From positions 19,989-83,988 of the forward strand of contig JAGXTA010000003.1 of assembly GCA_018333535.1 (NCBI GenBank): 64,000 nt of DNA, given 5' to 3'. The notes below the pieces were generated by a model, which saw only the letters and a program-made list of their open reading frames with translations, did no database searches and had not been told where the DNA came from. Below, piece by piece: positions 2,646 to 60,088 of the stretch. This DNA is from Deltaproteobacteria bacterium. Its GTDB lineage: Bacteria > Desulfobacterota > BSN033 > UBA1163. Both the position numbers and the translations under genes were made by a program. Within the stretch, counting starts at the first letter, position 1. Every line of letters starts with the position of its first letter.

Positions 2646-2692
2646 ATTTATTTTAACAGATAACAGAAAAATATCAAATTTTAATTGTTTTT

Positions 2693-2716
2693 TGGCACAG
2701 GATTTGCTGATATAAT
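2693..2716 (+). promoter_or_regulatory. Overlapping sigma54 (-24/-12) and extended -10 promoters
   Basis: TGGCACAGGATTTGC (GG-N10-GC) at 2693-2707. TGaTATAAT at 2708-2716, 6 nt before the ATG at 2723. Confidence 0.6.
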
Positions 2717-2722
2717 TCAATT

Positions 2723-3250: not shown

Positions 3251-3287
3251 AAAGATTTCATAGAAGCGTAAAAATGTACTTAACCAA

Positions 3288-3398
3288 TAAAAAGTTGATA
3301 ACCATTTGTTTTTTAAACTATATTCATTTCTACAACCTTTTTTTCAAAGTTATTTAAGAAGAATCATTTAAATAATTCGAAATTGGTATCATTTTTGC
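3288..3398 (+). promoter_or_regulatory. Sigma54 promoter with upstream IHF site
   Basis: TGGTATCATTTTTGC at 3384-3398. TATCAActttTTA (WATCAANNNNTTR) on the minus strand at 3288-3300. Confidence 0.55.
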
Positions 3399-3521
3399 GA
3401 ATTGATGATTTTACCAGTTTTGACCAAATATGACCATTCACATGGTAAAAAATTAGCCAAATTAAATCCAAACCTTTAATATCAAGAGAATGGCATTAAA
3501 AATGCAGTTATTAAAGTTGAT

Positions 3522-3908
3522 ATGAATAACCAAACGACAACAGAAAGAAAGATGGGCATACTTGCCGTTGAAAAGAGGCGGTATCCAAGATATACCGCCG
3601 AATTTCCCATGGACTATGCACGGATCGATGACAAGGGGACTTATGGCGGAATGGTAGCCAATGTGAGCGAAGGAGGGTTATTGGTCTACCTACCCCAACG
3701 GATGGAGATGGGATCTGTCTTAAAAATCGAAATCCTTTATGTCCAGGGTTTGGAATTTAACACGATCAAGGCTGTTGCCAAAATCGTTTGGTCTGACCTG
3801 ACGGCAAAAGAGAGCTACGGAGAGTATCGGTATGGTCTGCAATTTCTCCATATCGAAGAGAAGGAATTCGACAGATTGATCAATCTGCTAAAGGAGATCG
3901 GTAAATGA
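3522..3908 (+). CDS. Stand-alone PilZ domain protein
   Basis: RRYPR and NVSEGG c-di-GMP motifs, C-terminal YGLQF. Confidence 0.85.
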   Translation: MNNQTTTERKMGILAVEKRRYPRYTAEFPMDYARIDDKGTYGGMVANVSEGGLLVYLPQRMEMGSVLKIEILYVQGLEFNTIKAVAKIVWSDLTAKESYGEYRYGLQFLHIEEKEFDRLINLLKEIGK

Positions 3909-4128
3909 AAAGATGATCCCTGGATCATGAACAGTCCCGACCCATCCTGCTTGCCATTCCACGTTGTTTCAAACCCCTCTCTTAAAAAATTAAAAAAACC
4001 TCTTGAACTTTTTAAAAAAATTAATAAGAATAGAGTAGGTTTATGGATAGCAGAGGTGGGGAGAACGCCTATCCTTTTTTACGAGAAATCGAACCCTAAT
4101 ATAACAGGACACTAATACAAAAGGAATA

Positions 4129-6033
4129 ATGGTTCAATCTCATATGAAAGACGAAACGTATCGAGTCATCCTTCATCGAATCGGGGAAAATACCGAAGAG
4201 GAGAAGGCCCGTTTTTGCGAGGAGGTCTCAGAAAATCATGGGATCCCTCTCGACCTGATGAGAAAAATCGCTGATCGCTGTCCCATTGTCATTAAAAAAG
4301 ACCTCCCATTTAAAAAGGCTGAAATGTTGGCGATTGCCTTTAAATCATCCGGGGCCTCTGTCTCAGTGGAAAGAAAACGGGATTTGCCACCTATTTCCCT
4401 CGAGCTCATCACTGGAGGAACCTATCGTTTGGGATTGGAGTCGACCAGCCTCCGAAAGTCTCCCGGGGGAGCATGGCAGGTTTTCGGAAGGATTAAAAAT
4501 ATCTCTACCGAAGAACTCCGTGATGTCTGGACTCTGATTCAACTTTTTGACGAATATGAAGAGTTGGTCACCTTCGAAGAGATCCCTCTTCCCATCAATC
4601 CACTTCCTCCCAATGAATCTTCTCCGTTAAAGGCTATTTTTGAAGGGGACCTTCCTTTGCAGAAAGTTTCCATCGCTTTTAAGAACGCAGCAGGGAATCC
4701 GCTTCCGGCTATGGATAAGAGACAGAAGAAAGAATGGGTGGAGGTGAAAATTTCTGAGATCGGGGTAAGAAGTCGACCCCCTTCTTTGGTTGAAATATCT
4801 GAAGAGGTTCTTCACACCTTTGAGCTTCAACCCCCTCTTGTTCCCGAAGAGGGCGAAGAGAAGCCGGAAAGAGAAGGGGCTCTGATCGAAATCACACTGC
4901 CTGAAACGGAGGAAATCCCTTTAACGTCAAAAGAAAAAATAAAAAGCTCCGGAGAGGAGTTGGCTCTGGTTTTCTTTGAAAAAGACAGACAGCCATTAGA
5001 GGAGGAGAAAGAAAAAGAAGACGAGAGATTTCAAACGGTGGTCGGAGAGGATCGCTTACGGGAAGTGATTCATACTCTTAGGACCGAGGAAAGCTCTGAA
5101 GAAGAGCTTTATCTCGATGATCTTGCCGAAGATCGAATGGAGGATTTCCGCCAGATTGAATCAAGCCTCTCCTCATTTGAAATAGAAGAACCTGTCGCAG
5201 AAGAAAAAGCGGCAACCGTTGAAATAAAAACGGAGGAGGAAACATCTCTTTATCCCTGGTTGGAAGACTTCAAAAAAGGGATTGAGGCCTATGATCAAAC
5301 GAATCGGAACCCCTTCTTAATCTGGTTTGAAAATCTCCAGGAGGAAAAGCAATGGGGGGGCGTCTACCCGTCTCTCTTAACCCTATTGATTTACGCCCGC
5401 TTCAATCAAACTCCTTCCTCGGATACAGCGCTCGAAAATACTCAGAAGGTGTACCATCTGACCATCCAAGCGGACCAGTCCTACGAGGAATTCCCTCCCC
5501 TGAAAGGGGATCTCTTCTTTCCGTCAGATGTTTGGAGAGACCTATACATCAGGGCCATTCCTAAACTTCAGGAAGTGTCCCGTCGGATGATGGAGGGAAA
5601 GAATTGGGTCACATCCGATCTGGATCGACTCATTCGCGTCATCCCTCACATGACTGCACGGAATAGCCGTTGGGCCATTCGTGCCATCCATCACTGGATC
5701 CCAGGGATCATCCCTGATGTTTCAGATATGCCCATTGATATCACTGAAGGTCTCTACCGGGTGGCTTCCCGATTAGGCGTGATCAATCCCTTATTCGATT
5801 ATTATCAGGGGAAAAATTCAACGGGTGATCTGAGACTTCAATCCTTTGCAAGAGTTGCCTTTCCTGAGGATCCGGGAAAAATTGAGGAGCCGATGAGCCG
5901 ATTAGGAGCAACAGACGAAGGAGGGCATTGTTTGCCAACCCAACCTCAATGCCAGGACTGCCCCTTCGAGAGCTTCTGCCAAAAACGTTTTATCGATTTT
6001 GACCCGGCGGAAAAAGGGATGATTCTTCAATAA
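4129..6033 (+). CDS. Multidomain protein: L7/L12-like N-terminus, Ig-like (FxLYD-like) domain, acidic linker, degenerate HhH-GPD/endonuclease III-like C-terminus with 4Fe-4S motif
   Basis: CLPTQPQCQDCPFESFC matches C-X6-C-X2-C-X5-C. LYRVASRLG resembles the Nth segment. RBS aagga. Confidence 0.6.
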   Translation: MVQSHMKDETYRVILHRIGENTEEEKARFCEEVSENHGIPLDLMRKIADRCPIVIKKDLPFKKAEMLAIAFKSSGASVSVERKRDLPPISLELITGGTYRLGLESTSLRKSPGGAWQVFGRIKNISTEELRDVWTLIQLFDEYEELVTFEEIPLPINPLPPNESSPLKAIFEGDLPLQKVSIAFKNAAGNPLPAMDKRQKKEWVEVKISEIGVRSRPPSLVEISEEVLHTFELQPPLVPEEGEEKPEREGALIEITLPETEEIPLTSKEKIKSSGEELALVFFEKDRQPLEEEKEKEDERFQTVVGEDRLREVIHTLRTEESSEEELYLDDLAEDRMEDFRQIESSLSSFEIEEPVAEEKAATVEIKTEEETSLYPWLEDFKKGIEAYDQTNRNPFLIWFENLQEEKQWGGVYPSLLTLLIYARFNQTPSSDTALENTQKVYHLTIQADQSYEEFPPLKGDLFFPSDVWRDLYIRAIPKLQEVSRRMMEGKNWVTSDLDRLIRVIPHMTARNSRWAIRAIHHWIPGIIPDVSDMPIDITEGLYRVASRLGVINPLFDYYQGKNSTGDLRLQSFARVAFPEDPGKIEEPMSRLGATDEGGHCLPTQPQCQDCPFESFCQKRFIDFDPAEKGMILQ

Positions 6034-6056
6034 GGGTAGAACATTGGAGGAACGGA

Positions 6057-6446
6057 ATGGAGAAGTTGAAATCGATGAATGACAGAAGAAAATCCCAGAG
6101 AATGATACTGGACTTGCCCCTTGAATACCGCGTGATGGATGCGACTTATGGCCACGGAGGATTAGTGGTCAATGCAAGTGAACTGGGACTCCTTGTTCAA
6201 TCTATAAAAAACCTCCCCATTGGGACAAAATTAAATATAGCGGTCTTATTCCCCAAGGGATTTGAATTGGCCAACTTCGAAGTTCTGGCAGAGATCATCT
6301 GGAAGGACCTCCATTGGGAAGAGGATTGGGAGGGATATAAGTACGGGTTAAGATTCCTGCAGATTCTCGATAACGAGTATTGGAAATTAAAACAGCTATT
6401 AGACGACCAATTTCATTTGGAGGAGGTCCAGCGAAATTATCGATAG
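6057..6446 (+). CDS. Stand-alone PilZ domain protein
   Basis: RRKSQR, NASELG and YGLRF motifs; RBS ggagga. Confidence 0.85.
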   Translation: MEKLKSMNDRRKSQRMILDLPLEYRVMDATYGHGGLVVNASELGLLVQSIKNLPIGTKLNIAVLFPKGFELANFEVLAEIIWKDLHWEEDWEGYKYGLRFLQILDNEYWKLKQLLDDQFHLEEVQRNYR

Positions 6447-6459
6447 GGACAGGGGGGGG

Positions 6460-6846
6460 ATGACAGAGAAAAAGAATGGAAAACCTCGCATCGGAATTGC
6501 CAATATTGAAAGAAGGAAGTACCCGCGCTTTTCAATCGACCTGCCGATAGAATACCATTCAATCAGCTCTCCCGTCAGCCATGCCGGCCGGGCGCTCAAT
6601 GCGAGCGAAGGAGGATTGCTGGTGTACCTTCCGGAAAAGATGACCGTCGGCCAACACCTTGCCCTGAAGCTCTTCTTCCACTGCGGCGCTCAAATGAATA
6701 TCATCGAGATGACAGGAGAAGTCATCTGGATGGATATCCACCTGGACATGAACTGGGGGGATTATCGAACGGGCTTGAAGCTGATTGATATCTCTCCCGA
6801 AAATGTTCAACGACTGAAAGACTTCCTGCTATCCCTTACAAAGTAA
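6460..6846 (+). CDS. Stand-alone PilZ domain protein
   Basis: ERRKYPR and NASEGG motifs. Confidence 0.85.
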   Translation: MTEKKNGKPRIGIANIERRKYPRFSIDLPIEYHSISSPVSHAGRALNASEGGLLVYLPEKMTVGQHLALKLFFHCGAQMNIIEMTGEVIWMDIHLDMNWGDYRTGLKLIDISPENVQRLKDFLLSLTK

Positions 6847-39674: not shown

Positions 39675-40592
39675 ATGAGCAAAATATACAAGGCGTTGGA
39701 AAAAGCGGAAAAGGAAAGGGAACGGGTGGATCATCCACCCCCCTCACGGGAGGGTCAGGAAGAAAGAAAAGGGGAATCTTATGAACTGAGGCCTGAGGTC
39801 TCAAAGACCGAGCCATGGGTTTCCGACCGGAGCCTCGTTTCCATCTTGCAACCCGGATCCCTGGCCGCGGAACAATTCAGAAAACTGAGGACTTACCTTC
39901 TTCGGGGAAAAAACTCGGAATTTCCAAAAACGGTCATGGTGACGAGCGCGACCAATGCTGAAGGAAAAACATTTGTTTCAGCAAACCTTGCCGCGGGTAT
40001 TGTCCAGGACCTTCATGCCCATGCCCTGATGGTGGACTGTGATATGCGCAGCCCCCAGCTATCACGATGGTTTGGGTTGAGTGAGGACAAAGGTCTCTCC
40101 GAATATCTCGCAGGAGATGGAAAGCTGGACAATCTGTTGAAGAAGACCGGCGTGGAGAAGCTGAGCATCCTCTCAGGTGGAGCTGTTCGGGACAATCCCA
40201 CCGAATTGATCGCATCGAAGAAGATGGAAACGCTCATCGATGAATTAAAAACACGGTATCGGGACCGGTATATCATCTTCGATTCCACTCCCCTCCTTGC
40301 CACTACCGAACCGGAAGTATTGGCCAAGTTGGTCGATGGAATCATCATCGTCATTAAGGCTGGCGTAACCCCAAGAGAGACGGTCAAACAAGCCATCGCC
40401 TCTTTGGATAAGGAAAAGATCATAGGATTTGTCCTGAATGGTTTAGAGTTTAAATCCTCAGGACTTTCCACACGTTACTTTGGTTCAAATGGATATTATT
40501 ACACATATGGCTATGGCTACGGCAAAGGAAAGTCAAATGGTGAGAGCAGATGGAAGAAAATCTTTCCTTTTGCTCGGAAAGGTGGGGGATGA
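39675..40592 (+). CDS. Polysaccharide biosynthesis tyrosine autokinase (CpsD/CapB)
   Basis: EQFRKLRT, EGKT, DCDMR, FDSTP and a Tyr-rich tail. Confidence 0.92.
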   Translation: MSKIYKALEKAEKERERVDHPPPSREGQEERKGESYELRPEVSKTEPWVSDRSLVSILQPGSLAAEQFRKLRTYLLRGKNSEFPKTVMVTSATNAEGKTFVSANLAAGIVQDLHAHALMVDCDMRSPQLSRWFGLSEDKGLSEYLAGDGKLDNLLKKTGVEKLSILSGGAVRDNPTELIASKKMETLIDELKTRYRDRYIIFDSTPLLATTEPEVLAKLVDGIIIVIKAGVTPRETVKQAIASLDKEKIIGFVLNGLEFKSSGLSTRYFGSNGYYYTYGYGYGKGKSNGESRWKKIFPFARKGGG

Positions 40593-40647
40593 GGAGCGCT
40601 GAACCGCAGCACGTGATTTCATAACTCATAACTCCGAACTTAAAACT

Positions 40648-41142
40648 ATGAACTGGTACGTCATCCAAACGAAACCCAAGAAAGAAGAAGAGGCGACCTC
40701 CTATCTCACCACGAAAGGAGTCGATATCTTCGGCCCTAAAATTGAAGCCTATTCCCTGAGGGCAGGGAAAATGGTGAGGGAGCTGAAGCCTCTCTTCCCG
40801 GGGTATCTCTTCGGGAAGCTCAATCTGGAGCAGGACTATTCCCTGGTCAGATGGGGGAGGGGGGTTAAGAAAATCCTTGGTTTTGGTGGATATTCAATCC
40901 CCGTATCGGAAGAAGTGATTGAGATCATCAAGAATCGAGTGGACAGCAGCGGGGTCGTAAGAAAAACGGCTCACTTTAAACCCAATGATTTGGTGAGAGT
41001 CAAATCAGGGCCCTTAAAGGATCTAATCGGGATCTTTGACCGGTGGGTTTCAGACAGTGAAAGGGTCAGAATTCTCATGAACCTTATCGGATACCAGCCG
41101 GCCATAGAAATCCATTGCTCCATGCTTGAGAAAGTAGCGTAA
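40648..41142 (+). CDS. NusG/RfaH-paralog antiterminator
   Basis: WYVIQTKPKKE, PLFPGYLF and a KOW-like VRVKSGP segment. Confidence 0.9.
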   Translation: MNWYVIQTKPKKEEEATSYLTTKGVDIFGPKIEAYSLRAGKMVRELKPLFPGYLFGKLNLEQDYSLVRWGRGVKKILGFGGYSIPVSEEVIEIIKNRVDSSGVVRKTAHFKPNDLVRVKSGPLKDLIGIFDRWVSDSERVRILMNLIGYQPAIEIHCSMLEKVA

Positions 41143-41226
41143 AAAGCAAGTGAATAAGGTAATGAGGTAATAAGTTAATGTATGGGAAAAATTATTAAAT
41201 TAATTAACGATCAACTTATTAACATA

Positions 41227-41378
41227 TTATACACAGCGTCATTAATCTCAAGAGAGCACGTCATTCCCGCGAAAGCGGGAATCCAGGAAAACACTGGATT
41301 CCCCCGTATCAAGTACGGGGCAGGCTTAGTCAAGCCCGGAATGACAGAAAAGGAAAAGACTTCTGTCGTTGTGTATAA
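41227..41378. mobile_element. MITE with TTATACAC termini and internal GTCATTCCCGCGAAAGCGGGAATCC REP-like unit
   Basis: ttatacacagcg (41227) / cgttgtgtataa (41367-41378); internal palindromes at 41260-41345. Confidence 0.65.
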
Positions 41379-41511
41379 CCTATTAACTCGTTTATTGTAG
41401 TAAACTTTTTTCCACTCAAACGTGGCTGCCAGATCTAACATTTTTAAAATATTTTGTAGGAAATACTTCATTTCCAAAAGGGCGGGAGCCTATCCAAATG
41501 AAAGAGGGAAA

Positions 41512-42234
41512 ATGAACTTTCAGAAATATTTTTTACTTCAGACCGCTATCCTGTTGTTCCTCCTTCCTGTTTCTGTTTTCCCGGCCGATTTATCTCTATT
41601 TGCCGGAGGTGAAATCGACACGAGAGGTCAGGGGTTTTCTTACCTGGGTGTCGATATCACCCAAAAATTCACTCAAAATCTATCCCTGGCCGGAAGAATC
41701 ACTCCGAATTACCTGACCTACAGATACCGGGATGGAAATCATCTCATCCGGGCGAAATCACTTGGGATATATACGGTCGTTGGACTGAAATACTCTCTGA
41801 ACCAAACAACGCTCGGCATTTTTGGCGGAGCCGAATATAGAAATACCGATCTAAATCCCGATGTGAGAACGGCAGAGGTGAGGGGGAGCACTTGGGCTGG
41901 TTTGATTCAGGGAGAATTCGATACCTGGTTTGCAAGCCGGACCAATATAAACCTTTCCGCAAGCTTCAGCGGCACAGATAGCTTTTTTTATGAAAGAGGA
42001 AGAATTAAACGGCAGATCTCGAATTTTGAATTTAAGAAACCCAATACGATCAATCTTGGAATCGAACAATTTTATGGAAGGAACCCGGACTTTCGAATGG
42101 CAGGAGGGGGACTCCTGTTGGAAGTCTATCATATTCCGAAGAAGTTATCCCTTGCCCTCAAGGGGGGCTATAAACATGATTCGACTTTTGGCAGCGGAGG
42201 CTATGGAGGGCTGGAGCTATTTGTTAGTTTTTAA
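41512..42234 (+). CDS. BcsS-like outer-membrane beta-barrel (cellulose biosynthesis associated)
   Basis: Signal peptide, beta-strand pattern, YRY, terminal F; directly precedes a BcsA-like gene. Confidence 0.65.
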   Translation: MNFQKYFLLQTAILLFLLPVSVFPADLSLFAGGEIDTRGQGFSYLGVDITQKFTQNLSLAGRITPNYLTYRYRDGNHLIRAKSLGIYTVVGLKYSLNQTTLGIFGGAEYRNTDLNPDVRTAEVRGSTWAGLIQGEFDTWFASRTNINLSASFSGTDSFFYERGRIKRQISNFEFKKPNTINLGIEQFYGRNPDFRMAGGGLLLEVYHIPKKLSLALKGGYKHDSTFGSGGYGGLELFVSF

Positions 42235-42298
42235 ATAGAAAAGAGGAGATGCCAATCTCTCCCTTTTAAATTTTCAAATGATTGGTCCTGTCTGAAAA

Positions 42299-44467
42299 AT
42301 GATTTTATTAGGATTAAAAACATGGTGGTCCGATGTTAAAGGGACTCAGTCCTATCTCCGGTACTTCGAGAGAGAGGACCGCAGGAGACGCTTAGCCGGC
42401 CAATTCCTAACCATCATCACCATCGGTCTGGGAATTTACTACCTCGCCTGGCATGCTCAGCATATTAACTGGGAGGCAAAACTTTTTTCCTTTATCTTCT
42501 TTCTGGCAGAATTCATAGGACTTATCCTGTTTACTTTCTTTGCCTTCAACGCCTGGTTTTTAAGATATCACTCCCCCCAAGGGGTTTCTGTTGAAAAGCC
42601 TGAATCCATCGATGTCTTTATCACGGTTGCCGGCGAGCCGGTTAACATTGTTGTCGAAACCGTTCGGGCTGCCGTGAATATCGATTATCCCATCAAGAAA
42701 ATATATCTCCTCGATGAAAAGGGAGATATCGCCTATCAAAACATTGCGGAGAAATTTGGATGTGGATACTTTGCGAGGGAAGACCATAGCCATGCAAAAG
42801 CAGGGAATCTCAATTATGCCTTTGAAAGGACTCACAGCGACCTGATCCTCACCCTCGACGCCGATCAGATCCCTCAACCTCAGATCATCTCCACCCTCAT
42901 CGGCTACTTCAAATTTCCCATGATCGGGTTTATCCAATCCAAGCAGGATTTCAAAGTTCCCGTTGGAGATCCATTCGGAAACACGGACCGGGTTTTTTAT
43001 AATGTCATGCAGTTGGGAAAGGATATGGATAATTCCGCCTTCTCCTGCGGGTCAGGGGTGATCTACCGAAGAAAGGCGTTAGAGGATATTGGGGGGTTCA
43101 GCACCTGGAACCTGGTGGAAGATGTCCACACCTCAATACTCCTCCATGACCGGGGCTGGAGGTCGGTCTATCACCATTACCCCTTAAGCAAAGGCACTGC
43201 CCCTGCTGATATTTACGGGGTTTACAGACAGCGCAGGCAGTGGGCCGCCGATTCTCTGAGGATCCTCTTTTGGGACAACCCCTTCAGACGAAAGGGCCTG
43301 ACGTTCAAGCAGAAGCTCCAGTACTTTAACCTGGGTTTTGTCTATCTCGTTTCGGCCTTTGTGATGCCTCTCTTCTTCCTGACGCCGATCTGGGCTCTTC
43401 TTACCCATCAGTTTGTCCTGATCGCTCCTGTAAAAAGTTATGTTCTCCATCGATTTCCATATTTCATCGCCATGTCACTTGCCTATGGGATTATAAATTA
43501 TCCGACCCATTATATGCATGCCTTTAAAATGTGGACAGGCCTCTTTCCTGCCTTCATTCATGCCACCTGGATCGCCATTAGGTCAAGAAAGAGAAAACCT
43601 GCTTATCGTGTGAATGTGAAGCCGGGAGGAAGGGTGAAACAGAAAAACCCATTCCTGGCCGTTCTCCCACAGCAGGGTATTATATTTCTTTCCATTTTTG
43701 CTGTTCTTTATGCATTCATCAAGGGAGTGGAGACCTGGGATTATTATCTTTTAAATGTTGTTTGGAGCACGTGGTCCATTTGGACCATGAGTGGGATTTG
43801 TCTTGCCGCCTTTAAAACCCGTCGTTGGATAGAAGAGGTTTCTTTAAAAAACCAGAAAGAGCCCTCTTTTATTTTAAGAGCGAGGGAGCTTTTTATTACC
43901 ATGATCGTGACGCTTTTCATCGCCTTTTTCTTTTTAGTTGCAGATACGTCCGCAGTGAATCAAACGCTCAGCAACTTTCGGCAAAGGGTTTTATCCATAG
44001 GAGGAGAGAAAAAAGAGGCCACGATCATCCCCGAGAAATTCATTCCCATTCGCGATGTTCCTACGGTTTTTCCTGAGGAGAAAAGCGAACGGCCGAAAGA
44101 CGAAAGTGATGTTACTGGAGAAAAAGAAGGGGCAGGGCTTAAGAAGCTAATTGAAACGCAGGCGCCGGCGGAAGAGAAAAAGGCTTCCGTTAAAGAAGAT
44201 CAATGGATTGTGCAGGTAGCCGCCGTGAGGACTCAACAGGATGCCATGGCCTGGAAGGAAAAATTGATGACATCAGGCTTTCAGGCCTATTACGTATCTT
44301 CAAAGGTGAAAGAGGAAGAGTGGATTCGAGTTCGGGTGGGATTTTTTAAAGACAGGGATGAGGCTTGGAAAGCCGGAGAGGGAATAAGGGAGAAGGGCTA
44401 TCTCAAAGGCCCCTTCTGGATTACCAGAATTTCACAAAAGGAGATGGAGGTCCGGGTTGGTAAGTGA
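42299..44467 (+). CDS. Cellulose-synthase-like processive GT2 lacking PilZ, fused to a C-terminal SPOR domain
   Basis: HAKAGNLN, DAD, FSCGSG, VED and QRRQW motifs with several TMs; SPOR-like WIVQVAA..WIRVRVGFF..EA. Confidence 0.88.
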   Translation: MILLGLKTWWSDVKGTQSYLRYFEREDRRRRLAGQFLTIITIGLGIYYLAWHAQHINWEAKLFSFIFFLAEFIGLILFTFFAFNAWFLRYHSPQGVSVEKPESIDVFITVAGEPVNIVVETVRAAVNIDYPIKKIYLLDEKGDIAYQNIAEKFGCGYFAREDHSHAKAGNLNYAFERTHSDLILTLDADQIPQPQIISTLIGYFKFPMIGFIQSKQDFKVPVGDPFGNTDRVFYNVMQLGKDMDNSAFSCGSGVIYRRKALEDIGGFSTWNLVEDVHTSILLHDRGWRSVYHHYPLSKGTAPADIYGVYRQRRQWAADSLRILFWDNPFRRKGLTFKQKLQYFNLGFVYLVSAFVMPLFFLTPIWALLTHQFVLIAPVKSYVLHRFPYFIAMSLAYGIINYPTHYMHAFKMWTGLFPAFIHATWIAIRSRKRKPAYRVNVKPGGRVKQKNPFLAVLPQQGIIFLSIFAVLYAFIKGVETWDYYLLNVVWSTWSIWTMSGICLAAFKTRRWIEEVSLKNQKEPSFILRARELFITMIVTLFIAFFFLVADTSAVNQTLSNFRQRVLSIGGEKKEATIIPEKFIPIRDVPTVFPEEKSERPKDESDVTGEKEGAGLKKLIETQAPAEEKKASVKEDQWIVQVAAVRTQQDAMAWKEKLMTSGFQAYYVSSKVKEEEWIRVRVGFFKDRDEAWKAGEGIREKGYLKGPFWITRISQKEMEVRVGK

Positions 44468-45395
44468 TCTGATTGAACCACGGGTGGGCCTTTACCTTCC
44501 TGACGATGTCCATTCAGCGATGGAAGGAGCCTTTCAATACACACAGCTCCTGGGAGAAAGGGTTCAGATACTTTCCTTCTATGTCGCCTGGGGTTCCGGA
44601 AGAAGGAATCTCGATATTTCAGGGTTTCAGGAGGTCTTAAGGCGCGGATGCATCCCAATGATTACCTGGGAACCATGGCAGTGGCCCCTGGAAGATGCCC
44701 GGCCTGAAGATCAACCCGATTTTTCACTCTCAGAAATATTGAAAGGGAAATATGACGATTATATTCGGAGCTGGGCTCGTGATTTGAAGCAAATTTCAGG
44801 ACCTATCTTCTTACGGCCCATGCATGAAATGAATGGAAATTGGTATCCCTGGTGCGGAAAAGTAAACGGAAATCGACCCGAGGAATATATCGAAACCTGG
44901 CGGTATATCCGGTCCATTTTTAGAGAGGCCCAAATTTGTCAATTGATCTGGGTTTGGTCGCCCTATGCCCATTCTGTGCCGAAGGAATCGGACAATGAAG
45001 TTTGGCGATACTATCCGGGGGACAAAGAAGTCGATTGGTTGGCTTTGGATGGATATAACTGGGGTGAAACCCGGGATGGGTCAACATGGCAGAGCTTTGA
45101 AGAGATCTTTAAAGAGGGATATGAAACCTTAACCGAACTCGATTCTGAGAAACCACTCATGGTGGGAGAGGTGGGCTGTGCGGAAGATGGTGGAAACAAA
45201 GGAAAGTGGATTGAGGAAGCCTTTCAGTCATTGGGGCAACGTTTTCCGAGAATCAGGGCTTGCATATGGTTTAATGTCAATAAGGAGTGTGACTGGAGGA
45301 TTGAATCTTCTCCCCGTTCTATAAAAGCTTTTAAGGAGAATATCAGGGCCTGGACTTTTTTAAATTCCAACAAAAAACTGGGGGTACTTCATTGA
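44457..45395 (+). CDS. Glycoside hydrolase family 26
   Basis: PMITWEP, LRPMHEMNGNWYPW, YYPGD..VDW..DGYN and KPLMVGE motifs. TTG start with RBS ggagg. Confidence 0.9.
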   Translation: MVSDLIEPRVGLYLPDDVHSAMEGAFQYTQLLGERVQILSFYVAWGSGRRNLDISGFQEVLRRGCIPMITWEPWQWPLEDARPEDQPDFSLSEILKGKYDDYIRSWARDLKQISGPIFLRPMHEMNGNWYPWCGKVNGNRPEEYIETWRYIRSIFREAQICQLIWVWSPYAHSVPKESDNEVWRYYPGDKEVDWLALDGYNWGETRDGSTWQSFEEIFKEGYETLTELDSEKPLMVGEVGCAEDGGNKGKWIEEAFQSLGQRFPRIRACIWFNVNKECDWRIESSPRSIKAFKENIRAWTFLNSNKKLGVLH

Positions 45396-45415
45396 AACAA
45401 GAAGGAGGGGGAAAA

Positions 45416-46150
45416 ATGAAAACCTGTGCAATCAGGCATTGTTTAGTGATGGCGTTGTTTGTCATTTCATTAATAGGAGTTCTGCAGAGTCCTGCCTTTG
45501 GCCTTCAGATGACGATTGGCGGGATAGATGATGCCGGTCAATTCGCCGGACAAGACGCCTATCTTAAATTTGTTGATTCTGACGGAAATACACTGAAGGA
45601 GATTACCAAGGCCGGCTTCCCGACCCCTTGGACCTTTGCCTCTCAGGTTTATGCCGATGCCCCTGGCGGTATATGGTATTTACAATCCGCTGGCAATATC
45701 TGGTCTTCCGACACAATTGTGGGAGACACTTTTACAGCCCCCTATGCAGGAGTATATAGGATATCACCCGCGGACGGAGCCTTTACATACGATTCTTTTC
45801 TCTGGAGTGGGGTAGCGGACAAATGGTTGTGGGAGCTTCAGATTTATGTGGTCGAGGATGATGTTAATTACACGTTAGGGTCTAAGAATCTTTATGATCA
45901 AGGATACCTGGCTTTAGGGGCAACCCTTGGGAAGCATATAGATATAACCTTAGTTGAAGGGGAAAAGCTGGTTTTTTGGATTGCCGATGGGAGTCTCGAT
46001 GGCCCTCCAAACGAACGCAACACCATTGACAACTCCGGGAGCCTGACCTTTAATGTCGTGCTTATTCCTGAACCTTCGACCCTCATCCTTGCCGGAACCG
46101 GATTGCTTCTTCTCTTGAGGCGATACCGAAAATACATATCGGCTCATTAA
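45416..46150 (+). CDS. PEP-CTERM sorting domain protein
   Basis: Signal peptide; C-terminus IPEPSTLILAGTGLLLLLRRYRK. Confidence 0.92.
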   Translation: MKTCAIRHCLVMALFVISLIGVLQSPAFGLQMTIGGIDDAGQFAGQDAYLKFVDSDGNTLKEITKAGFPTPWTFASQVYADAPGGIWYLQSAGNIWSSDTIVGDTFTAPYAGVYRISPADGAFTYDSFLWSGVADKWLWELQIYVVEDDVNYTLGSKNLYDQGYLALGATLGKHIDITLVEGEKLVFWIADGSLDGPPNERNTIDNSGSLTFNVVLIPEPSTLILAGTGLLLLLRRYRKYISAH

Positions 46151-46199
46151 CCTAATTTGGTCCAGCTGCACAACAACGCTTAACTCGCCTGGAGCCCCC

Positions 46200-46376
46200 A
46201 TGAAAGACATCCTTGACCAGATGGAGGAACATATTGCAGCGATTCGAAACCTTCAGATGAATTTTAACTTCCATTCGAAGAAACTCGAAAAATTGATGAG
46301 GGCTTTGATTGATATTCAACCGCAAAATCAAAACGTGGATGAGGATCATACTATCCCATCACAAGGAAATAATTAA
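46200..46376 (+). CDS. Small hypothetical protein (58 aa), below the ORF-track cutoff
   Basis: GGAG 5 nt before the ATG; MKDILDQMEEHIAAIRNLQMNFNFHSKKLEKLMRALIDIQ..; fills the gap before the priming GT. Confidence 0.5.
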   Translation: MKDILDQMEEHIAAIRNLQMNFNFHSKKLEKLMRALIDIQPQNQNVDEDHTIPSQGNN

Positions 46377-46388
46377 TCACCTGAGCCT

Positions 46389-47465
46389 ATGAACATGAAC
46401 GATTCCCGATCCATAGAGAAAACCATATTGTCAAAACCCCATTTCCTTGACCGGTTACGGGTTGAGCAACGGCGAGCCGATCGATCCAAATTGCCTTTGT
46501 CAATTGTGCTTTTATCTTTTCGGGCAGGAGCGATCCCTGACAAAAAGCTCTTTAGAGAACTTTTAGAAATGCTGCAGAGAAATACACGAGAAACAGACAT
46601 TAAGGGTTGGATTGATAATTGTGCCATAGGGCTTATTCTTCCAGATACAAACGAAAATGGAGTTCAATGTTTCGTTGAGAAAATCTTTAATGGAAATGGA
46701 GAACTGGCTTATTCGGTCATTAAAGGAACCTACCCAGACGATCTTTTTCGGGAGCTGCTTAAGGAGACACAAGGTCAACCAAACCTTTTTCCTGTCGACG
46801 TTGTTGAATCCCATACTTCGCATGGCATCCAGGATGTCCTCAAAAGAGTTATGGATATCGTAGGGTCACTCATTGGGCTAATGCTCTTTTCACCTCTCAT
46901 GCTCATCACAGCTGTTGCAATAAAAATAACCTCCCCGGGACCGATCATTTTTAAACAATTTCGTTTGGGAAAGAAAGGCCTACGGTTTCCATTCTATAAA
47001 TTCAGATCCATGTACTGGAATGCGGATGATTCGATTCACCGGGAGTACGTAAACAGTTTAATACAGGGCGACCTCAAAAAAATCAATCAGGGGGATAAGG
47101 AGACGCCCCTTTACAAGATGAAATCCGATCCTCGGGTCACTCTTGTCGGAAAAATCATTCGTAAGACAAGCATCGACGAACTTCCACAGTTTTTCAACGT
47201 ATTAAAGGGAGAGATGAGCCTGGTGGGGCCTCGTCCCCCTATCCCTTATGAAATTGAGAAATATAAACCCTGGCATCTCAGGAGGATCCTGGAAGTCAAA
47301 CCCGGCATCACTGGACTCTGGCAGGTGGATGGAAGGAGTAGGACATCGTTTGATGGTATGGTGCGTTTGGATCTGAGATATGCGCAAAATTGGTCTCTCT
47401 GGCTCGACCTGAAGATATTGCTGAAGACGGTAAGAGCCGTCATTCGTCCCCAAGGCGCCCTCTAA
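46389..47465 (+). CDS. Priming (polyprenyl-phosphate) sugar transferase with N-terminal degenerate GGDEF-like domain
   Basis: [27 protein letters not shown] and [10 protein letters not shown] motifs. N-terminus [24 protein letters not shown]. Confidence 0.9.
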
Positions 47466-47484
47466 CTTCGATAGGATAAGCGGC

Positions 47485-47607
47485 TTAAGGTTAGAGATCA
47501 GAGGCAAAAAAATAGATATGTTTGAGGTTTGAGATTGAAGGCCGAAGGCAAAAGGGAAACTATTTTTCCCGCTAACCTGAAGCGTAGCGTTCCTCAAACC
47601 TCAAACA
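47485..47607. repeat. Inverted heptamer arms (GTTTGAG/CTCAAAC)
   Basis: gtttgaggtttgagattgaaggccgaagg ... cctcaaacctcaaac. Confidence 0.6.
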
Positions 47608-47624
47608 GTTAAAAGGAGGAAAAA

Positions 47625-48701
47625 ATGAAAATCGCAGTGATCGGATGTGGCTATTGGGGTCCAAATCTTATCAGGAATTTTGTCCAGTCTAACAAGATTG
47701 AGGAATTGACCTGTTGTGATTTAGACCAGAAAAGGTTAGACCGGATGAAGAGCCTCTATCCCTCCGTCAAGTTGGCATCAAATTACGAAGAGCTCCTTCA
47801 GAAGCCCGACCTTGATTCAGTGGCCATTGCAACCCCCGTAAAGACCCATTACCCGATTGCAAAGGAATTCCTTTCCGAGGGGAAACATGTCTTTATTGAG
47901 AAACCTCTAACCCATTCGTTTGATACGGCATTAGAGTTAGTGAAATTGGCTGAAGAGAAGCAAAAGGTGTTGATGGTGGGACATACCTTTGAATATACGG
48001 CGGCTGTCAACAAGATTAAAGATATCGTCGACAGTGGCGAGATTGGAAAGATCCTCTATATTAGTTGCACTCGCGTAAATCTTGGTCTCTTTCAGCCGGA
48101 TATTAATGTCATATGGGATCTCGCCCCTCATGATATTTCAATCATTCTTTACATTCTTGGGGAGGCTCCGGTTTCCGTCAATAGCCAGGGGAGGGCCCAT
48201 TTCAAAGCCGGGATTGAAGATGTGGCCACCACCACGCTCAATTTTAAAGATGGTGTGATTGCGTTTATCCACAATAGTTGGCTCGATCCCAACAAGATCC
48301 GCCGAACCACCATTGTGGGAACAAAGAAAATGCTGGTTTATGATGACATTGAGCCTCAGGAAAAGATCAAAATATTCGATAAGGGAGTTGACGTTCCTCC
48401 TTACTATGATACCTTTGCAGAATTTCATTTATCTTACCGCTATGGCGATATTCACAGCCCAAGAATTGAGGACTATGAACCCCTTAAAAAGGAATGTGAC
48501 CATTTTCTCACATGTATTCAGAATGGCGTGTCTCCATTAAGTGATGGGTATAGCGGGGTAAGGGTGGTTTCGATTTTGGAGGCCGCAAGCAAATCCCTGA
48601 GGCTCTCGGGGAGATCCGTCCAGACTCAGGGTCTTAAGTTATTAAACAAAAAATCGAAAAACAATGGAAACGGGTTTTTAATGGCAAGCAGCTGGAGGTG
48701 A
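47625..48701 (+). CDS. Gfo/Idh/MocA oxidoreductase (nucleotide-sugar dehydrogenase)
   Basis: GCGYWG, HVFIEKP and WDLAPHD motifs. Confidence 0.92.
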   Translation: MKIAVIGCGYWGPNLIRNFVQSNKIEELTCCDLDQKRLDRMKSLYPSVKLASNYEELLQKPDLDSVAIATPVKTHYPIAKEFLSEGKHVFIEKPLTHSFDTALELVKLAEEKQKVLMVGHTFEYTAAVNKIKDIVDSGEIGKILYISCTRVNLGLFQPDINVIWDLAPHDISIILYILGEAPVSVNSQGRAHFKAGIEDVATTTLNFKDGVIAFIHNSWLDPNKIRRTTIVGTKKMLVYDDIEPQEKIKIFDKGVDVPPYYDTFAEFHLSYRYGDIHSPRIEDYEPLKKECDHFLTCIQNGVSPLSDGYSGVRVVSILEAASKSLRLSGRSVQTQGLKLLNKKSKNNGNGFLMASSWR

Positions 48702-52011: not shown

Positions 52012-52245
52012 ATGGAAATAAACGTAAAAGAAGCAAGGGCGAGGCTAAGCTTCCTGCTTAAAAAAGTTGAAAAAGGAGATGAGATTCTGCTTCTGCGCAG
52101 GGGCAAGAAAGTGGCACGGCTTGTTCCGGTACAAACTCCGCAACGCTCCCTGCCCAGTTTGAAAGAGTTCCGATCTTCTATCCAATTGAAGGGGAAGCCT
52201 TTGAGTGCTGTCGTTGTAGAAAGTAGGGAAAAGGAACGGTTCTGA
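52012..52245 (+). CDS. Phd/YefM-family antitoxin
   Basis: INVKEARARLS.LL..VEKGDEI...RRGK.VARLVP. Confidence 0.9.
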   Translation: MEINVKEARARLSFLLKKVEKGDEILLLRRGKKVARLVPVQTPQRSLPSLKEFRSSIQLKGKPLSAVVVESREKERF

Positions 52246-52667
52246 TGGTTTATGTCGACACAAGTGTTTTGGTGGGATATTACTGTCCGGAGCCAATTAG
52301 CGAAAAAGTCGAAAGATTTCTCATGGCTCAGAAACGACCGGCAATCAGCCTTCTTACAGAGGTCGAACTCTTTTCAGCCTTATCAAAAAAGATACGAGGT
52401 AAGGAAATGAACCGGAGGGACGCCAGCAAGGTGTCAGCCAGGTTCCTAACTCATTTGGATAATGATTATTATACGAATATCCCTGTTGAAACACATCACT
52501 ACCGATTGGCAAGAGATTGGATCGGCCTGTTTAACACAGACCTTAAAAGCCTCGATGCGCTCCATTTAGCTATCTCTTCGGCGGAGAATTTAACCCTGGT
52601 AACCGTTGATAAGTCCCTTTTTAAATCAGCGAGAGCCCTTACCAGAGATGCTATCTTGCTGGAATAG
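52245..52667 (+). CDS. VapC PIN-domain toxin
   Basis: YVDTS, E..SA, LDALHLA and LVTVD motifs; coupled to the antitoxin. Confidence 0.9.
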   Translation: MVYVDTSVLVGYYCPEPISEKVERFLMAQKRPAISLLTEVELFSALSKKIRGKEMNRRDASKVSARFLTHLDNDYYTNIPVETHHYRLARDWIGLFNTDLKSLDALHLAISSAENLTLVTVDKSLFKSARALTRDAILLE

Positions 52668-58112: not shown

Positions 58113-58249
58113 TAGCAGCCCATACCGTATAATTAAGAACATGTAAAATGTAGCCGTATCTTTTATGTTATCTACACCCTACACCCTTTAACCAACCCCC
58201 TTTTTAATAACATGTAACCCGCAACCCGTAACGTATTTATCTCTTTAAC
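58030..58249 (+). repeat. 220-bp direct repeat, copy 1 (GT2 3' end plus downstream spacer)
   Basis: Matches 59085-59304; I count 3 substitutions by eye. Confidence 0.9.
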
Positions 58250-58395
58250 TTGCAACTCGTAACCTGTAACCTGAAACGGTTTTTTAACCCGCAACTCATA
58301 ACTCGTAACATCCTTAAAATGTTCCATGTTTCACGTTTCGAGTCGTCTGGGAGGGTTGACTTGGACTCTATACTATGATAAATTTTCAATATATT

Positions 58396-58549
58396 ATGGA
58401 CGCCTTAGCAAAACAGTTGGATGCCAAACTGCGTAAGTGGCAGCCTGAGAAGGCGGACCAGGTGCGGTGACGTTTGGATATGATCGATGCACCCACAACC
58501 CGGTGAAGTCTGGCTTGTTGATCTAGGATTAGCAGCAAAGACACGGCCG
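58396..58549 (+). pseudogene. Deleted antitoxin/MazF-PemK remnant
   Basis: A 24-aa fragment MDALAKQLDAKLRKWQPEKADQVR*, then only the MazF N-terminus MHPQPGEVWLVDLGLAAKTRP. Confidence 0.6.
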
Positions 58550-58591
58550 ATGGATGCAATGTCATTCCAAATCATTCATGAGGAGGAATAT

Positions 58592-58828
58592 ATGACAGTT
58601 AAGCAACAATTGATAAGAGAGATAGAAGACTTACCACTTGATGCGCAGGAAAAAGTACTCAAGTTAATCCATTTTGTTAAGGAAGAAATATTTGTCTTGC
58701 GCGAGAAAATGTCCACGGAAAAGAAGATGAATGCTCTTACAGATGTGGACAAAATAGCGATCGAAACCGGGATTCAAGATCTGGCAGAGCATCATGATCA
58801 TTACCTATACGGTGTTTCGAAGAGATGA
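58592..58828 (+). CDS. Putative antitoxin (DUF2281-like)
   Basis: RBS gaggagg; REIEDLP..QEKVL and DLAEHHDHYLYG motifs; overlaps the PIN gene. Confidence 0.7.
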   Translation: MTVKQQLIREIEDLPLDAQEKVLKLIHFVKEEIFVLREKMSTEKKMNALTDVDKIAIETGIQDLAEHHDHYLYGVSKR

Positions 58829-59100
58829 AGCGTAAGGTATTTGTAGATACCAGTGCATGGTTGGCTCTCGTCAATAAATCAGATGCTGCCCACCAGAAGG
58901 CAAAGAAGGTACGCGATGCCCTTTTAAAAGATCACATCCAATTCGTAGTTACCAATTATGTGATGGTTGAGATAGCAAATGCACTATGCAGAATTCCTCA
59001 CAGAGAAACAGCAGTGAAGCTTATAAATTTTATAGAAATGACCGAAAATATTCAGATCGTGGAAATTGACAAGGCAATTTATAAAGAGGCCTATTTCTAA
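58825..59100 (+). pseudogene. C-terminally truncated VapC PIN toxin
   Basis: VFVDTSAW and TNYVMVE are present, but it is only 91 aa and is cut off where the duplicated segment begins. Confidence 0.75.
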
Positions 59101-59304
59101 AGAACTTATGGAATTCATACGCAGAGAGCAAATGCAACGATTAAAGAATATTTTTAGGAAATTATAGTAGCAGCCCATACCGTATAATTAAGAACATGTA
59201 AAATGTAGCCGTATCTTTTATGTTATCTACACCCTACACCCTTTAACCAACCCCCTTTTTAATAACATGTAACTCGCAACCCGTAACGTCTTTATCTCTT
59301 TAAC
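59085..59304 (+). repeat. 220-bp direct repeat, copy 2
   Basis: Offset 1055 from copy 1. A C-to-T difference at 59098 creates the PIN stop codon. Confidence 0.9.
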
Positions 59305-59530
59305 ACATAACTCGCAACTTTCGCAGCTTTCCTTGAACCTTTTTCCTTGCACCTTTAACCTTATCCCCTACACCCAATACGCTACACCCTATATGTTTAA
59401 ACCCGTAACTCGTAACATCCTTAAAATATTCCAGGTTTCAGGTTCCAGGTTTCAGGTTCTGTAACGTAATATTTTTTAACTTGTAACTTGTAACGGGTTT
59501 TTATTATTAACTTGCAACATTCTCTCTAAC
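59305..59530. repeat. Heptamer arrays upstream of the four-helix-bundle gene
   Basis: aactcgc, ccctaca, aacccgt, (caggttt/caggttc)4 and aacttgt units. Confidence 0.75.
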
Positions 59531-59532
59531 CC

Positions 59533-59913
59533 ATGAAATCCTACCGCGACTTAGAAATTTACAAAATATCTTATGATTTGGCCGTCAAGATCCACAATGC
59601 CTCATTAAAGCTTCCTCAGTATGAACTGTACGAAGAAGGTAGTCAAATGAGACGATCTTCAAAAGGGGTTCCTGGATGCATTGCTGAGGGATACGGTAGA
59701 AGGCGGTATAAAGCTGAATTCGTTAGATATCTCATTTTCGCTCATGCCTCCTGTGATGAAACCATTTTTCATTTAAATATGGTGAAGGATACACATCAGG
59801 ATATGGCCAGCCTTTTCGAACCCTTCATCAAACCCTACGAAAACTTGAGCCCTAAGATTCACAAATTCATTGAATATGTAGATAAGCATTGGAACAAAGA
59901 TTTTAGAATTTGA
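59533..59913 (+). CDS. Four helix bundle protein (23S rRNA IVS / TIGR02436-like)
   Basis: SYRDLEIYK, LP.YELYE.GSQMRRSS..V...IAEGYGRR and A.ASCDET motifs. Confidence 0.9.
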   Translation: MKSYRDLEIYKISYDLAVKIHNASLKLPQYELYEEGSQMRRSSKGVPGCIAEGYGRRRYKAEFVRYLIFAHASCDETIFHLNMVKDTHQDMASLFEPFIKPYENLSPKIHKFIEYVDKHWNKDFRI

Positions 59914-60067
59914 ACTTGTAACTTGTAACTTGTAACCTGTTTTTTCTGTAATCTGTTTTTCTTCAAACTTGCAACTTGTAACTTGAAACCTGTAATAGTT
60001 TTTTAACCTGCAACGTGTAACCCGTAACTCGCAACGGTTTTTTAACACATAACCTGTAACTTGTAAC
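59912..60067 (+). repeat. Dense AAC(T/C)(T/C)GT heptamer array downstream of the four-helix-bundle gene
   Basis: aacttgt x3, then aacttgc/aacttgt/aacttga/aacctgt, then aacctgc/aacgtgt/aacccgt/aactcgc, separated by T-tracts. Confidence 0.85.
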
Positions 60068-60088
60068 GTTTGAGCGGTGATCTGAACG

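Follow-up and report, generated by a model that had tools for sequence, protein, structure and literature searches.

Synthase-dependent exopolysaccharide (EPS) systems, such as those for cellulose, poly-N-acetylglucosamine (PNAG), alginate and Pel, combine a c-di-GMP-gated synthase with a periplasmic co-polymerase or tetratricopeptide repeat (TPR)-porin, and the hydrolase or lyase encoded with the synthase (BcsZ, PelA, PgaB, AlgL) acts on the cognate polymer. Streptomyces features a PilZ-less, BcsB-less cellulose-synthase-like enzyme in its CslA-GlxA-CslZ system, which is found at the growth zone (tip) and has a glycoside hydrolase gene adjacent, but this Gram-positive system is localised via the polarisome rather than by a peptidoglycan-binding domain and has a different partner set. 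The SPOR domains of FtsN, DamX, DedD and RlpA gather at septa by binding denuded glycans; FtsN, DedD and RlpA carry theirs at the periplasmic C-terminus, after a transmembrane (TM) segment and a flexible linker, yet all three are division or peptidoglycan-remodelling factors and not polysaccharide synthases. Here we analyse a 64,000-nucleotide stretch of a Deltaproteobacteria genome (Desulfobacterota; contig JAGXTA010000003.1, positions 19,989 to 83,988; hereafter the window), in which four tightly packed, co-directional plus-strand genes of the window's open reading frame (ORF) list, at 41512-46150, encode a BcsS-family barrel, a BcsA-like family 2 glycosyltransferase (GT2) ending in a SPOR domain, a GH26 hydrolase and a PEP-CTERM protein. 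The cassette is a conserved, undescribed variant of the synthase-dependent pathway, and we hold it moderately probable that the four genes are explained as a conserved portable cassette for a minimal pathway of this type.

Several described enzymes come close to this synthase without matching it. With BcsA-BcsB of E. coli (7lby, 9b8v) and R. sphaeroides (4hg6, 4p00) it has in common the GT2 fold, the TM channel and interface helices, a gating-loop-like segment, the catalytic D, DxD and ED residues and two motifs, KAG and QxPQ. It lacks PilZ, however, has no BcsB in its genome and is predicted to bear a periplasmic SPOR tail; its N-terminal TM helices number two instead of four, one more TM helix is added at the C-terminal end, and it reads QRxQW for QxxRW and YxV[NT]xK for FxVTxK. 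BgsA/BgsB of Sinorhizobium meliloti has in common with it a BcsA-like PilZ-less GT2, few N-terminal TM helices and the proposed product class, mixed-linkage glucan (MLG) (PMC5567048, PMC6821405). BgsA is, however, set apart by its published description: its C-terminus forms a cytosolic region that binds c-di-GMP, its QxxRW motif is intact, and its partners are BgsB and TolC (PMC13438883), whereas the window synthase is without a cytosolic C-terminal domain and is partnered by BcsS, GH26 and the PEP-CTERM protein, with no HlyD-like gene in Pfam scans of the cassette's flanking genes. Plant CesA and CslF6 (6wlb, 8g2j, 8dqk; TMq 0.50-0.55) share the seven TM helices and the lack of both BcsB and PilZ, and plant CesAs are described as having an additional C-terminal TM helix and no requirement for BcsB (PMC10374906), but the plant enzymes feature big plant-specific cytosolic inserts, form trimers, have no SPOR tail and are only 13-15% identical to the window synthase. 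As a reading of the window from its sequence alone (hereafter the sequence-only reading) had supposed, no description of a GT2-SPOR synthase or of such a cassette was found in the openly accessible literature, subscription journals lying outside the search.

Architecture and conservation of the synthase

Profile scans of the synthase return Glyco_tranf_2_3 (7.4e-20), Cellulose_synt (1e-9) and SPOR PF05036 (2.3e-12, residues 635-701), with no Pfam match to PilZ at E≤0.1, which bears out the earlier view of a PilZ-less BcsA-like GT2. By phmmer its nearest solved relatives are E. coli BcsA 7lby (7.1e-53, residues 31-501) and then R. sphaeroides BcsA (~1e-37), and the AlphaFold2 (AF2) model (mean pLDDT 82.2, pTM 0.73) finds its best Foldseek match in E. 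coli BcsA as well (9b8v_E, TMq 0.61, rmsd 2.8 Å over 509 columns), followed by plant CesA and CslF6. The NCBIfam CelA model TIGR03030 is matched over positions 58-564 of 714 only, at 239.6 bits against a cut-off of 699.1, and PRK11498 at 197.8 bits against 992. The protein is not BcsA proper, falling outside that family by the family cut-off, the QxxRW motif, the PilZ domain and BcsB, yet in catalysis and translocation it most likely works like BcsA.

The processive motifs DAD, VED and QRRQW, as well as the gating-loop-like YRVNVK, all named in the sequence-only reading, are present, and a 56-sequence family alignment shows D139, K167-A168-G169, D187/A188/D189, E274/D275, Q311/R312/Q314/W315 and Y436 to be invariant. 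In the gating-loop segment, to be compared with FxVTxK, invariant Y436 is accompanied by V438 and K441, each conserved in at least 90% of sequences, and the fourth position is N or T family-wide. Q314 of QRRQW, which aligns to the R of QRIRW in E. coli BcsA, is present in 56/56 sequences, and the QRxQW pattern recurs in all 95 database homologues retained for the tree discussed below. Both QxxRW and FxVTxK are given as fully conserved in the BcsA, CrdS and BgsA clades (PMC6821405), and in sequence the family departs from all three of these characterised β-glucan synthase groups. The variant motif and the extra TM helix, which the sequence-only reading had singled out, are thus indeed present, but both are common to the whole family and not peculiar to the window protein.

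The AF2 model contains seven TM helices (residues 28-54, 62-84, 336-369, 378-400, 456-475, 480-505 and 524-547), with only ~18 cytosolic residues between TM6 and TM7; the topology is taken from BcsA homology together with this model, a simple Kyte-Doolittle scan having missed the less hydrophobic TM4 and TM6. Homology to BcsA stops with TM6, the helix that in BcsA leads into the cytosolic PilZ domain. Because one further helix, TM7, lies beyond BcsA's last and the GT domain is cytosolic, the linker and the SPOR domain are predicted to be periplasmic, in agreement with the TM parity argued from the sequence alone. Furthermore, TM7 is a family trait rather than an adaptor for SPOR, because SPOR-less family members of ~545 residues end exactly at this helix. 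Conservation also extends to the cytosolic N-terminus ahead of TM1 (residues 12-35), where D12, R21, D27, R28, R30, R31 and Q35 are each at least 90% conserved in the 56 sequences; this segment could serve as a regulatory or partner-binding part of the PilZ-less synthase.

The proposal of a charged linker and a C-terminal SPOR domain holds as well: the profile match lies above the gathering score (Table 1), and the AF2 model folds the tail confidently into the two-fold strand-helix-strand order (strand 636-643, helix 646-658, strand 663-670; strand 673-683, helix 686-698, strand 707-710; mean pLDDT by 10-residue block ~79-94). Matches to NCBIfam models are weak (FtsN 5.4e-5, RlpA 2.3e-4, DedD 0.029), and a sequence search of the tail against solved structures gives none at E≤1. 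Over 27 family rows W636, W675 and W707 are conserved in all, R677 in 25 and Q639 in 17 (with H in 7), and position 642 is S in 22 and A in 5; the sheet positions equivalent to Q639, W675 and R677 are, we take it, needed for septal localisation of FtsN. Three further SPOR proteins are encoded in the genome.

Recurrence of the fusion and of its gene neighbourhood

Of 8000 candidates scored in a homologue search with the synthase, 2369 proteins were retained at E≤0.001, and domains were counted on the best 120. SPOR PF05036 is found in 42 of these by precomputed Pfam and in 46/121 with a family-specific hidden Markov model, the latter an upper bound since it takes in P0045, whose tail is instead of the Cds6_C NTF2-like type. 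The fusion is thus not unique to one assembly but recurs in many metagenomes and metagenome-assembled genomes, and the cassette is seen in subsurface, groundwater, lake and soil metagenomes. Four proteins (P0019, P0022, P0030, P0075) carry tandem SPOR domains; P0051 falls by precomputed Pfam into the same Cds6_C family as the P0045 tail, and the 740-residue synthase of L002 clusters with both on the tree. Longer fused forms, of the synthase-SPOR-GH26 kind for example, which could account for the lack of a signal peptide in the GH26, were also looked for, with only ordinary BcsA-TPR and BcsA-BcsB fusions at 29-30% identity found, and PF02156 lies on the same protein as the synthase in none of the best 120 near-length homologues. 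At the level of the phylum, 32 of 401 sampled genomes match the synthase at E≤1e-30, with full-length matches in two only (G246, G316), and none was found in the five other genomes of the window's genus that were searched; as expected, this patchy distribution fits a portable cassette.

In a FastTree of 115 rows, with local support values only and several long branches flagged, all PilZ-less forms make up one clade (support 100), apart from the ordinary BcsA of ~770 residues. A QRGTW pair comes first within it, then a clade of eight (three of them reading QRGQW), the pair P0124 and L046, a 39-row clade of ~545-residue forms and, with support 100, a clade of 57 rows to which all SPOR forms belong. 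As to the gene neighbourhoods of more distant members, two were scanned in the clade of eight: TPR proteins and GH8 follow the QRGQW synthase of L053 (8499-13528), and in L038 (10766-16249) the synthase is followed by a 1423-residue TPR protein and an M48 peptidase; both synthases are ~33-40% identical to the window's by tblastn and belong to PilZ-less, BcsB-less but otherwise cellulose-like sets. The QRGTW synthase of L110 (1952-6516) is flanked by a PMT_2-like membrane glycosyltransferase and a GH26 that has a hydrophobic segment at its N-terminus and a long Pro/Thr-rich linker.

Synteny was assessed over 14 loci with a synthase at least 46% identical to the window's (L001, L002, L005, L033, L034, L041-L047, L049 and L056; L004 and L006 duplicate L033 and L034, and L033, L043 and L056 look like one species). 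GH26 adjoins the synthase in 12 of the 14, the exceptions (L047, L049) being loci that end inside the synthase gene, and BcsS does so in 12 as well, not being found in L034 and L047. A homologue of the PEP-CTERM gene is present in 6/14, most of the other loci ending too early to tell. The co-occurrence with GH26 and BcsS that the sequence-only reading had put forward as a check is accordingly found, with a gene order that varies between BcsS-synthase-GH26-PEP in some loci and synthase-GH26-BcsS-PEP in others.

The classical partners were not found. Genome-wide profile searches of the source genome (4.39 Mb, 192 contigs, 97.2% complete) give no match for BcsB (PF03170), BCSC_C or GH8, as had been proposed from the window alone and with no bcsB lying elsewhere; BcsB is likewise found in none of five other family-carrying genomes, or 0/6 with the source genome included. 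As a control, BcsB is recovered in 4/5 same-phylum genomes with ordinary 770-residue BcsA, where it adjoins bcsA. The genome does encode five stand-alone PilZ proteins, two of them in the window at ~3570-3893 (142 aa) and ~6508-6831 (147 aa), ~35-38 kb upstream of the cassette and with no evident link to it. Whether the synthase merits the earlier epithet 'self-contained' is uncertain.

What the SPOR tail does for the synthase is a matter of analogy, division-site targeting being suggested by the behaviour of such domains in other proteins. By sequence comparison the domain is an accessory that near relatives can dispense with, and it may act as a general peptidoglycan tether or spacer under the wall or the BcsS barrel with no septal or polar targeting, a reading to which we give appreciable weight, short of an even chance. 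It is favoured by the interchangeability of the tail, with none, one SPOR, tandem SPORs or the NTF2-like Cds6_C found on similar cores, and by the long disordered linker, which fits a tether; on the other side stand the septal gathering of the FtsN, DamX, DedD and RlpA domains and the conservation in the family of sheet residues Q639, W675 and R677, whose equivalents matter in FtsN. The tail is also where a related metagenome contig, L041, parts from the window: most 300-nucleotide (nt) segments between 35.5 and 43.1 kb are ~97-100% identical, with dips at 37.0-37.3 kb and at the intergenic repeat described below, after which identity falls to 86-94% at 43.1-44.0 kb and 56-68% across the linker, SPOR and GH26 start, and is ~85% in GH26. 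The comparison shows a mosaic with its breakpoint within the synthase gene, and what varies is the periplasmic tail together with the genes further downstream.

Partner proteins and the likely polymer

The hydrolase matches PF02156 (4.6e-17, 62.8 bits against a cut-off of 20.2) and so is the GH26 enzyme that the sequence-only reading had recognised, together with its overlap with the synthase stop. Its nearest characterised relative is Clostridium thermocellum CtLic26A, the endoglucanase H module (2bv9, 2bvd, 2cip; 1.4e-53 over residues 27-298), at roughly 35-40% identity as counted from the alignment midline, and its catalytic pair, the E of HEMNG and the E of GEVG, aligns to E109 and E222 of 2bv9; mannanases match at ~1e-10 to 1e-7 and the mixed-linkage xylanase AlXyn26A at 3.8e-5. 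PDB 2BV9 is the β-1,3/1,4-glucanase CtLic26A, in a family that holds β-1,4-mannanases, β-1,3-xylanases and one β-1,3/1,4-glucanase (PMC10470212). To judge from these alignments, the window enzyme is of the lichenase branch and would hydrolyse β-1,3/1,4-glucan. CtLic26A, however, belongs to an exported enzyme of the cellulosome that breaks down plant glucan, whereas the window GH26 is a single domain without a signal peptide. The overlap of its start with the synthase stop, which recurs in five of 11 related loci (L001, L033, L042, L043, L046), suggests that it is translationally coupled to the synthase gene.

A lichenase-sensitive β-glucan is favoured as the product because hydrolases paired with synthases cut the cognate polymer and this one is CtLic26A-like. 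Of the options that the sequence-only reading had offered, that of a mixed-linkage β-glucan thus gains and that of mannan loses, on the basis of the CtLic26A match. A β-mannan, a β-1,3-xylan or another non-glucan would be in keeping with the other activities of the GH26 family, and the unusual QRxQW leaves room for another donor; we nonetheless consider such a product very improbable, given the mannanase and AlXyn26A E-values set against that of the lichenase and a synthase closest to the UDP-glucose-using BcsA.

The barrel protein matches Pfam CBP_BcsS PF17036 (1.3e-14; 54.9 bits, cut-off 24), and the genome encodes no other BcsS; the barrel's ORF spans 41422-42234, with a good ribosome-binding site before the ATG at 41512. 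It falls into the BcsS clusters of the Atlas (score 0.99, TM 0.81), and the structures resembling it include autotransporter barrels. Homologues of BcsS are found beside ordinary QRxRW BcsA genes too, in 11 loci that include L020, L021, L067, L079, L090, L091, L098, L099, L111 and L114, and the protein is treated as an occasional accessory in a FEMS review (PMC8892547); neither BcsS nor SPOR figures in the excerpted part of the operon survey PMC7112194.

The fourth protein scores 24.5 bits against 20.7 with PF07589 (2.7e-5) and, just below the cut-off, 15.6 against 16 with TIGR02595; its likely start is the ATG at 45416, and its tail, IPEPSTL...RRYRK, has the PEP motif, TM helix and basic cluster of an exosortase substrate, with an exosortase, EpsH, encoded elsewhere in the genome (contig C100, 150.6 bits). 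The AF2 model (pLDDT 89.1) shows a signal helix, a β-sandwich at residues 37-225 and the C-terminal TM helix. Foldseek against the PDB returns weak jelly-roll matches for the domain (C1q/TNF, CBM35, a GH115 domain; TM-score ≤0.48), and the Atlas gives scores ≤0.78 and TM ≤0.48. The family counts 91 members, all named hypothetical or PEP-CTERM, and features many invariant or near-invariant Trp, Tyr, Asp and Asn residues, by which the β-sandwich may be a sugar-binding module. For several of these members the longest contig on record has the same length as that recorded for one of the synthase homologues. A complex prediction for synthase core residues 1-570 with PEP-CTERM residues 36-252, modelled on the idea of a BcsB-like tail-anchored partnership, scored 0.00 and speaks neither for nor against binding.

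Domain content, topology, conservation and synteny, like the failure to find BcsB, BcsC and GH8, are in silico results; the donor sugar, the linkage, the SPOR ligand, the localisation and the partner roles are inferred, as follows. The synthase would be a processive inverting GT2 with a UDP-sugar as donor, UDP-glucose being the most probable, and the growing chain would pass through the enzyme's own seven-helix channel without a PilZ gate or BcsB. TM7 would bring its C-terminus back to the periplasm, where a disordered linker of ~60 residues bears the SPOR domain, and the latter would tether the enzyme to peptidoglycan, with the denuded glycan strands that are concentrated at septa and new poles as the probable target. 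In the outer membrane, the BcsS barrel likely serves as exit or anchor; the Lic26A-type GH26 would trim or release the polymer, and the PEP-CTERM jelly-roll protein, once sorted by the genome's exosortase, probably binds or anchors it at the surface. The product is most likely a β-glucan cut by a lichenase-type enzyme (mixed β-1,3/1,4), with plain cellulose less likely and mannan unlikely. Control would likely be transcriptional rather than by c-di-GMP binding to the synthase, because the cassette follows an RfaH/UpxY-like antiterminator in a sigma-54-controlled XrtA locus.

A number of observations weigh against this proposal. The family-wide Gln for Arg in QxxRW means that catalysis or donor binding may differ from that of BcsA. 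SPOR is absent or replaced in close relatives (the ~545-residue forms, the P0045 tail), and by parsimony its presence on the tree needs at least 11 state changes, some of which may reflect truncated proteins. The BcsS barrel, with look-alikes of ~12 strands, may be too narrow for an exit pore. Neither signal peptide, TM segment nor Tat motif was found in the GH26 of the window and of 11 related loci of its clade, and because it is without a signal peptide the enzyme as predicted would not meet a periplasmic or extracellular polymer. It is possible that it acts at the cytoplasmic face of the complex, that it leaves by an unrecognised exit route or that it acts only after lysis; the idea of a fusion hidden by a frameshift was dropped, as in L002 the GH26 lies ~400 nt past the synthase and is still signal-less. 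Lic26A-like genes at ~40% identity are, furthermore, found away from any synthase: 31 of the 401 phylum genomes have such genes and only the closest are synthase-linked, the distant ones of G008 and G121 standing beside leuS, lptE and murJ in a context that is uninformative. Finally, TPR proteins and GH8, the classical cellulose set, accompany the synthase in a deeper branch of the PilZ-less clade, and the ancestral product of the clade may be cellulose.

The last point bears on a rival account, in which the cassette makes ordinary β-1,4-glucan and its GH26 is the lineage's stand-in for BcsZ, much as clostridial CcsZ, which serves cellulose, is a GH5 and not a GH8 enzyme (PMC8892547). The closest solved relatives of the synthase are cellulose synthases, its homologues are named 'cellulose synthase (UDP-forming)' by JGI, and BcsS, an accessory of classical bcs operons, adjoins ordinary QRxRW synthases, all of which would sit well with cellulose, as does the sister clade with its TPR and GH8 genes. 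Against it, the hydrolase is nearest to a lichenase and not to a cellulase (PMC10470212), and the exchange in this lineage of GH8 for GH26 and of TPR proteins for BcsS suggests a changed polymer or export route. BcsA-like bacterial GT2 enzymes can, moreover, produce mixed-linkage glucan, with models unable to tell its synthesis from that of cellulose (PMC10374906). We regard plain cellulose as rather unlikely and retain the mixed-linkage glucan as the preferred product.

Genomic setting and significance

The cassette is nested within an XrtA/PEP-CTERM EPS locus, as the sequence-only reading had it and as the XrtA-type flanking genes in Pfam and NCBIfam scans bear out. Upstream lie a response-regulator-GGDEF gene, two sigma-54 activators, XrtA/PEP-CTERM-type export, barrel, chain-length, ATPase and tyrosine-kinase genes and a NusG paralogue, and downstream a priming sugar transferase, an oxidoreductase, an acetyltransferase, an aminotransferase, three FemAB-like genes, a GT4, a GT2 and an XrtA-type amidotransferase, all on the plus strand. 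The NusG paralogue is a probable operon antiterminator, and a homologue stands upstream of the cassette in L033, L041, L042, L043, L049 and L056. The coordinates of the cassette and its parts are collected in Table 1.

Table 1. Coordinates within the window of the cassette genes, of the parts of the synthase and of the gene directly upstream.
Feature	Position	Strand	Assignment and remarks
RfaH/UpxY/LoaP-like NusG paralogue	40648..41142	+	Directly upstream of cassette; Pfam NusG 1.6e-17; NCBIfam RfaH 93.8 bits and UpxY 73.4 bits, both under cut-offs
BcsS-family small outer-membrane β-barrel, 240 aa	41512..42234	+	PF17036; signal peptide, C-terminal Phe
Synthase, 722 aa	42299-44467	+	Glyco_tranf_2_3, Cellulose_synt, SPOR
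Synthase core, aa 1-547	42299..43939	+	Amphipathic N-terminal helix, 2 TM, GT2, interface helices, 4 TM and putative gating loop, seventh TM
Seventh TM helix of synthase, aa 524-547	43868-43939	+	AF2 model
Charged disordered linker, predicted periplasmic, aa 573-631	44015..44191	+	pLDDT <50
SPOR domain, predicted periplasmic, aa 636-720	44204..44458	+	PF05036, 47.5 bits against a cut-off of 21
Lic26A-type GH26 glycoside hydrolase, 312 aa	44457..45395	+	PF02156; start overlaps synthase stop by 11 nt
PEP-CTERM protein	45392..46150	+	PF07589; signal peptide, ~190-aa jelly-roll β-sandwich, PEP motif, TM helix, basic tail

In the context of this locus the cassette could also be a subsystem of the surrounding XrtA/PEP-CTERM (Wzx/Wzy-type) EPS machinery, where it might, for instance, supply glucan to the very matrix polymer to which exosortase substrates become attached, or remodel that polymer. 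Such a role is in line with its position on one strand between the XrtA-type chain-length, ATPase and tyrosine-kinase genes and the priming sugar transferase, with its having its own PEP-CTERM protein, and with the same placement after a NusG paralogue in L041, L042 and L049. Four loci (L002, L044, L045, L046), however, match only the cassette genes in a tblastn with 14 genes of the window, albeit on short contigs; ~5 kb separates the cassette from the NusG paralogue in L033/L043, and the lack of the synthase in the other genomes of the genus noted above is what a portable unit would show. We consider the subsystem account unlikely, and the portable cassette remains our favoured reading.

Several further features of the locus may be recorded. 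The intergenic region 41143-41511 contains a palindromic hairpin, CATTCCCGCGAAAGCGGGAATC, at 41261-41282, of which the genome has 87 copies within 2 mismatches (46 forward, 41 reverse; reversed control 0), and its stem shows compensatory variants, indicating a dispersed element of the repetitive extragenic palindrome (REP)-like kind. Metagenome contigs reach a depth of 400-6450 in the bin 41182-41375 against about 1-95 elsewhere, and one contig of metagenome run X9 skips 41229-41402. A promoter and terminator scan of 40500-47700 gave counts at or under shuffled expectation, and an Rfam search of 30000-64000 no match at the gathering threshold. Within the EPS locus, a PIN-domain ORF (52245-52667, 1.3e-13) directly follows a 77-aa ORF, which gives the 52012-52667 region the look of a VapBC-type toxin-antitoxin pair; the ~2 kb at 58113-60088 hold only short ORFs of 91-126 aa and may represent a membrane-protein gene that is degraded or unusual. 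Pfam scans of the larger window ORFs found no Wzx- or Wzy-like gene, and two large ORFs at 495-2225 (576 aa) and 4129-6033 (634 aa) have no Pfam match at 1e-5.

The boldest account of the cassette would be this: a new class of synthase with no need of BcsB or c-di-GMP and with Gln in place of the diphosphate-binding Arg, whose mixed-linkage glucan is made, through coupling by SPOR, at septa and new poles, with the PEP-CTERM protein as exosortase-processed anchor and GH26 at the cytoplasmic face. We think it doubtful; if true, it would provide the first mechanistic link between a synthase-dependent pathway and exosortase sorting.

Taken on its own, the cassette represents a widespread environmental alternative that does without a c-di-GMP-gated synthase, a co-polymerase or a TPR-porin and carries a peptidoglycan-binding domain on the synthase itself. 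With its invariant QRxQW the family provides a natural experiment on a residue considered indispensable to every processive β-glucan synthase, and the Lic26A-type partner makes the enzyme a candidate for the very small number of known bacterial synthases of mixed-linkage glucan. The PEP-CTERM protein, which is inherited along with it, gives a handle in turn on the function of exosortase substrates. If SPOR does put the synthase at septa, the fusion would be a simple, transferable way to localise matrix secretion, which would bear on the flocs of syntrophic, aggregate-forming bacteria.

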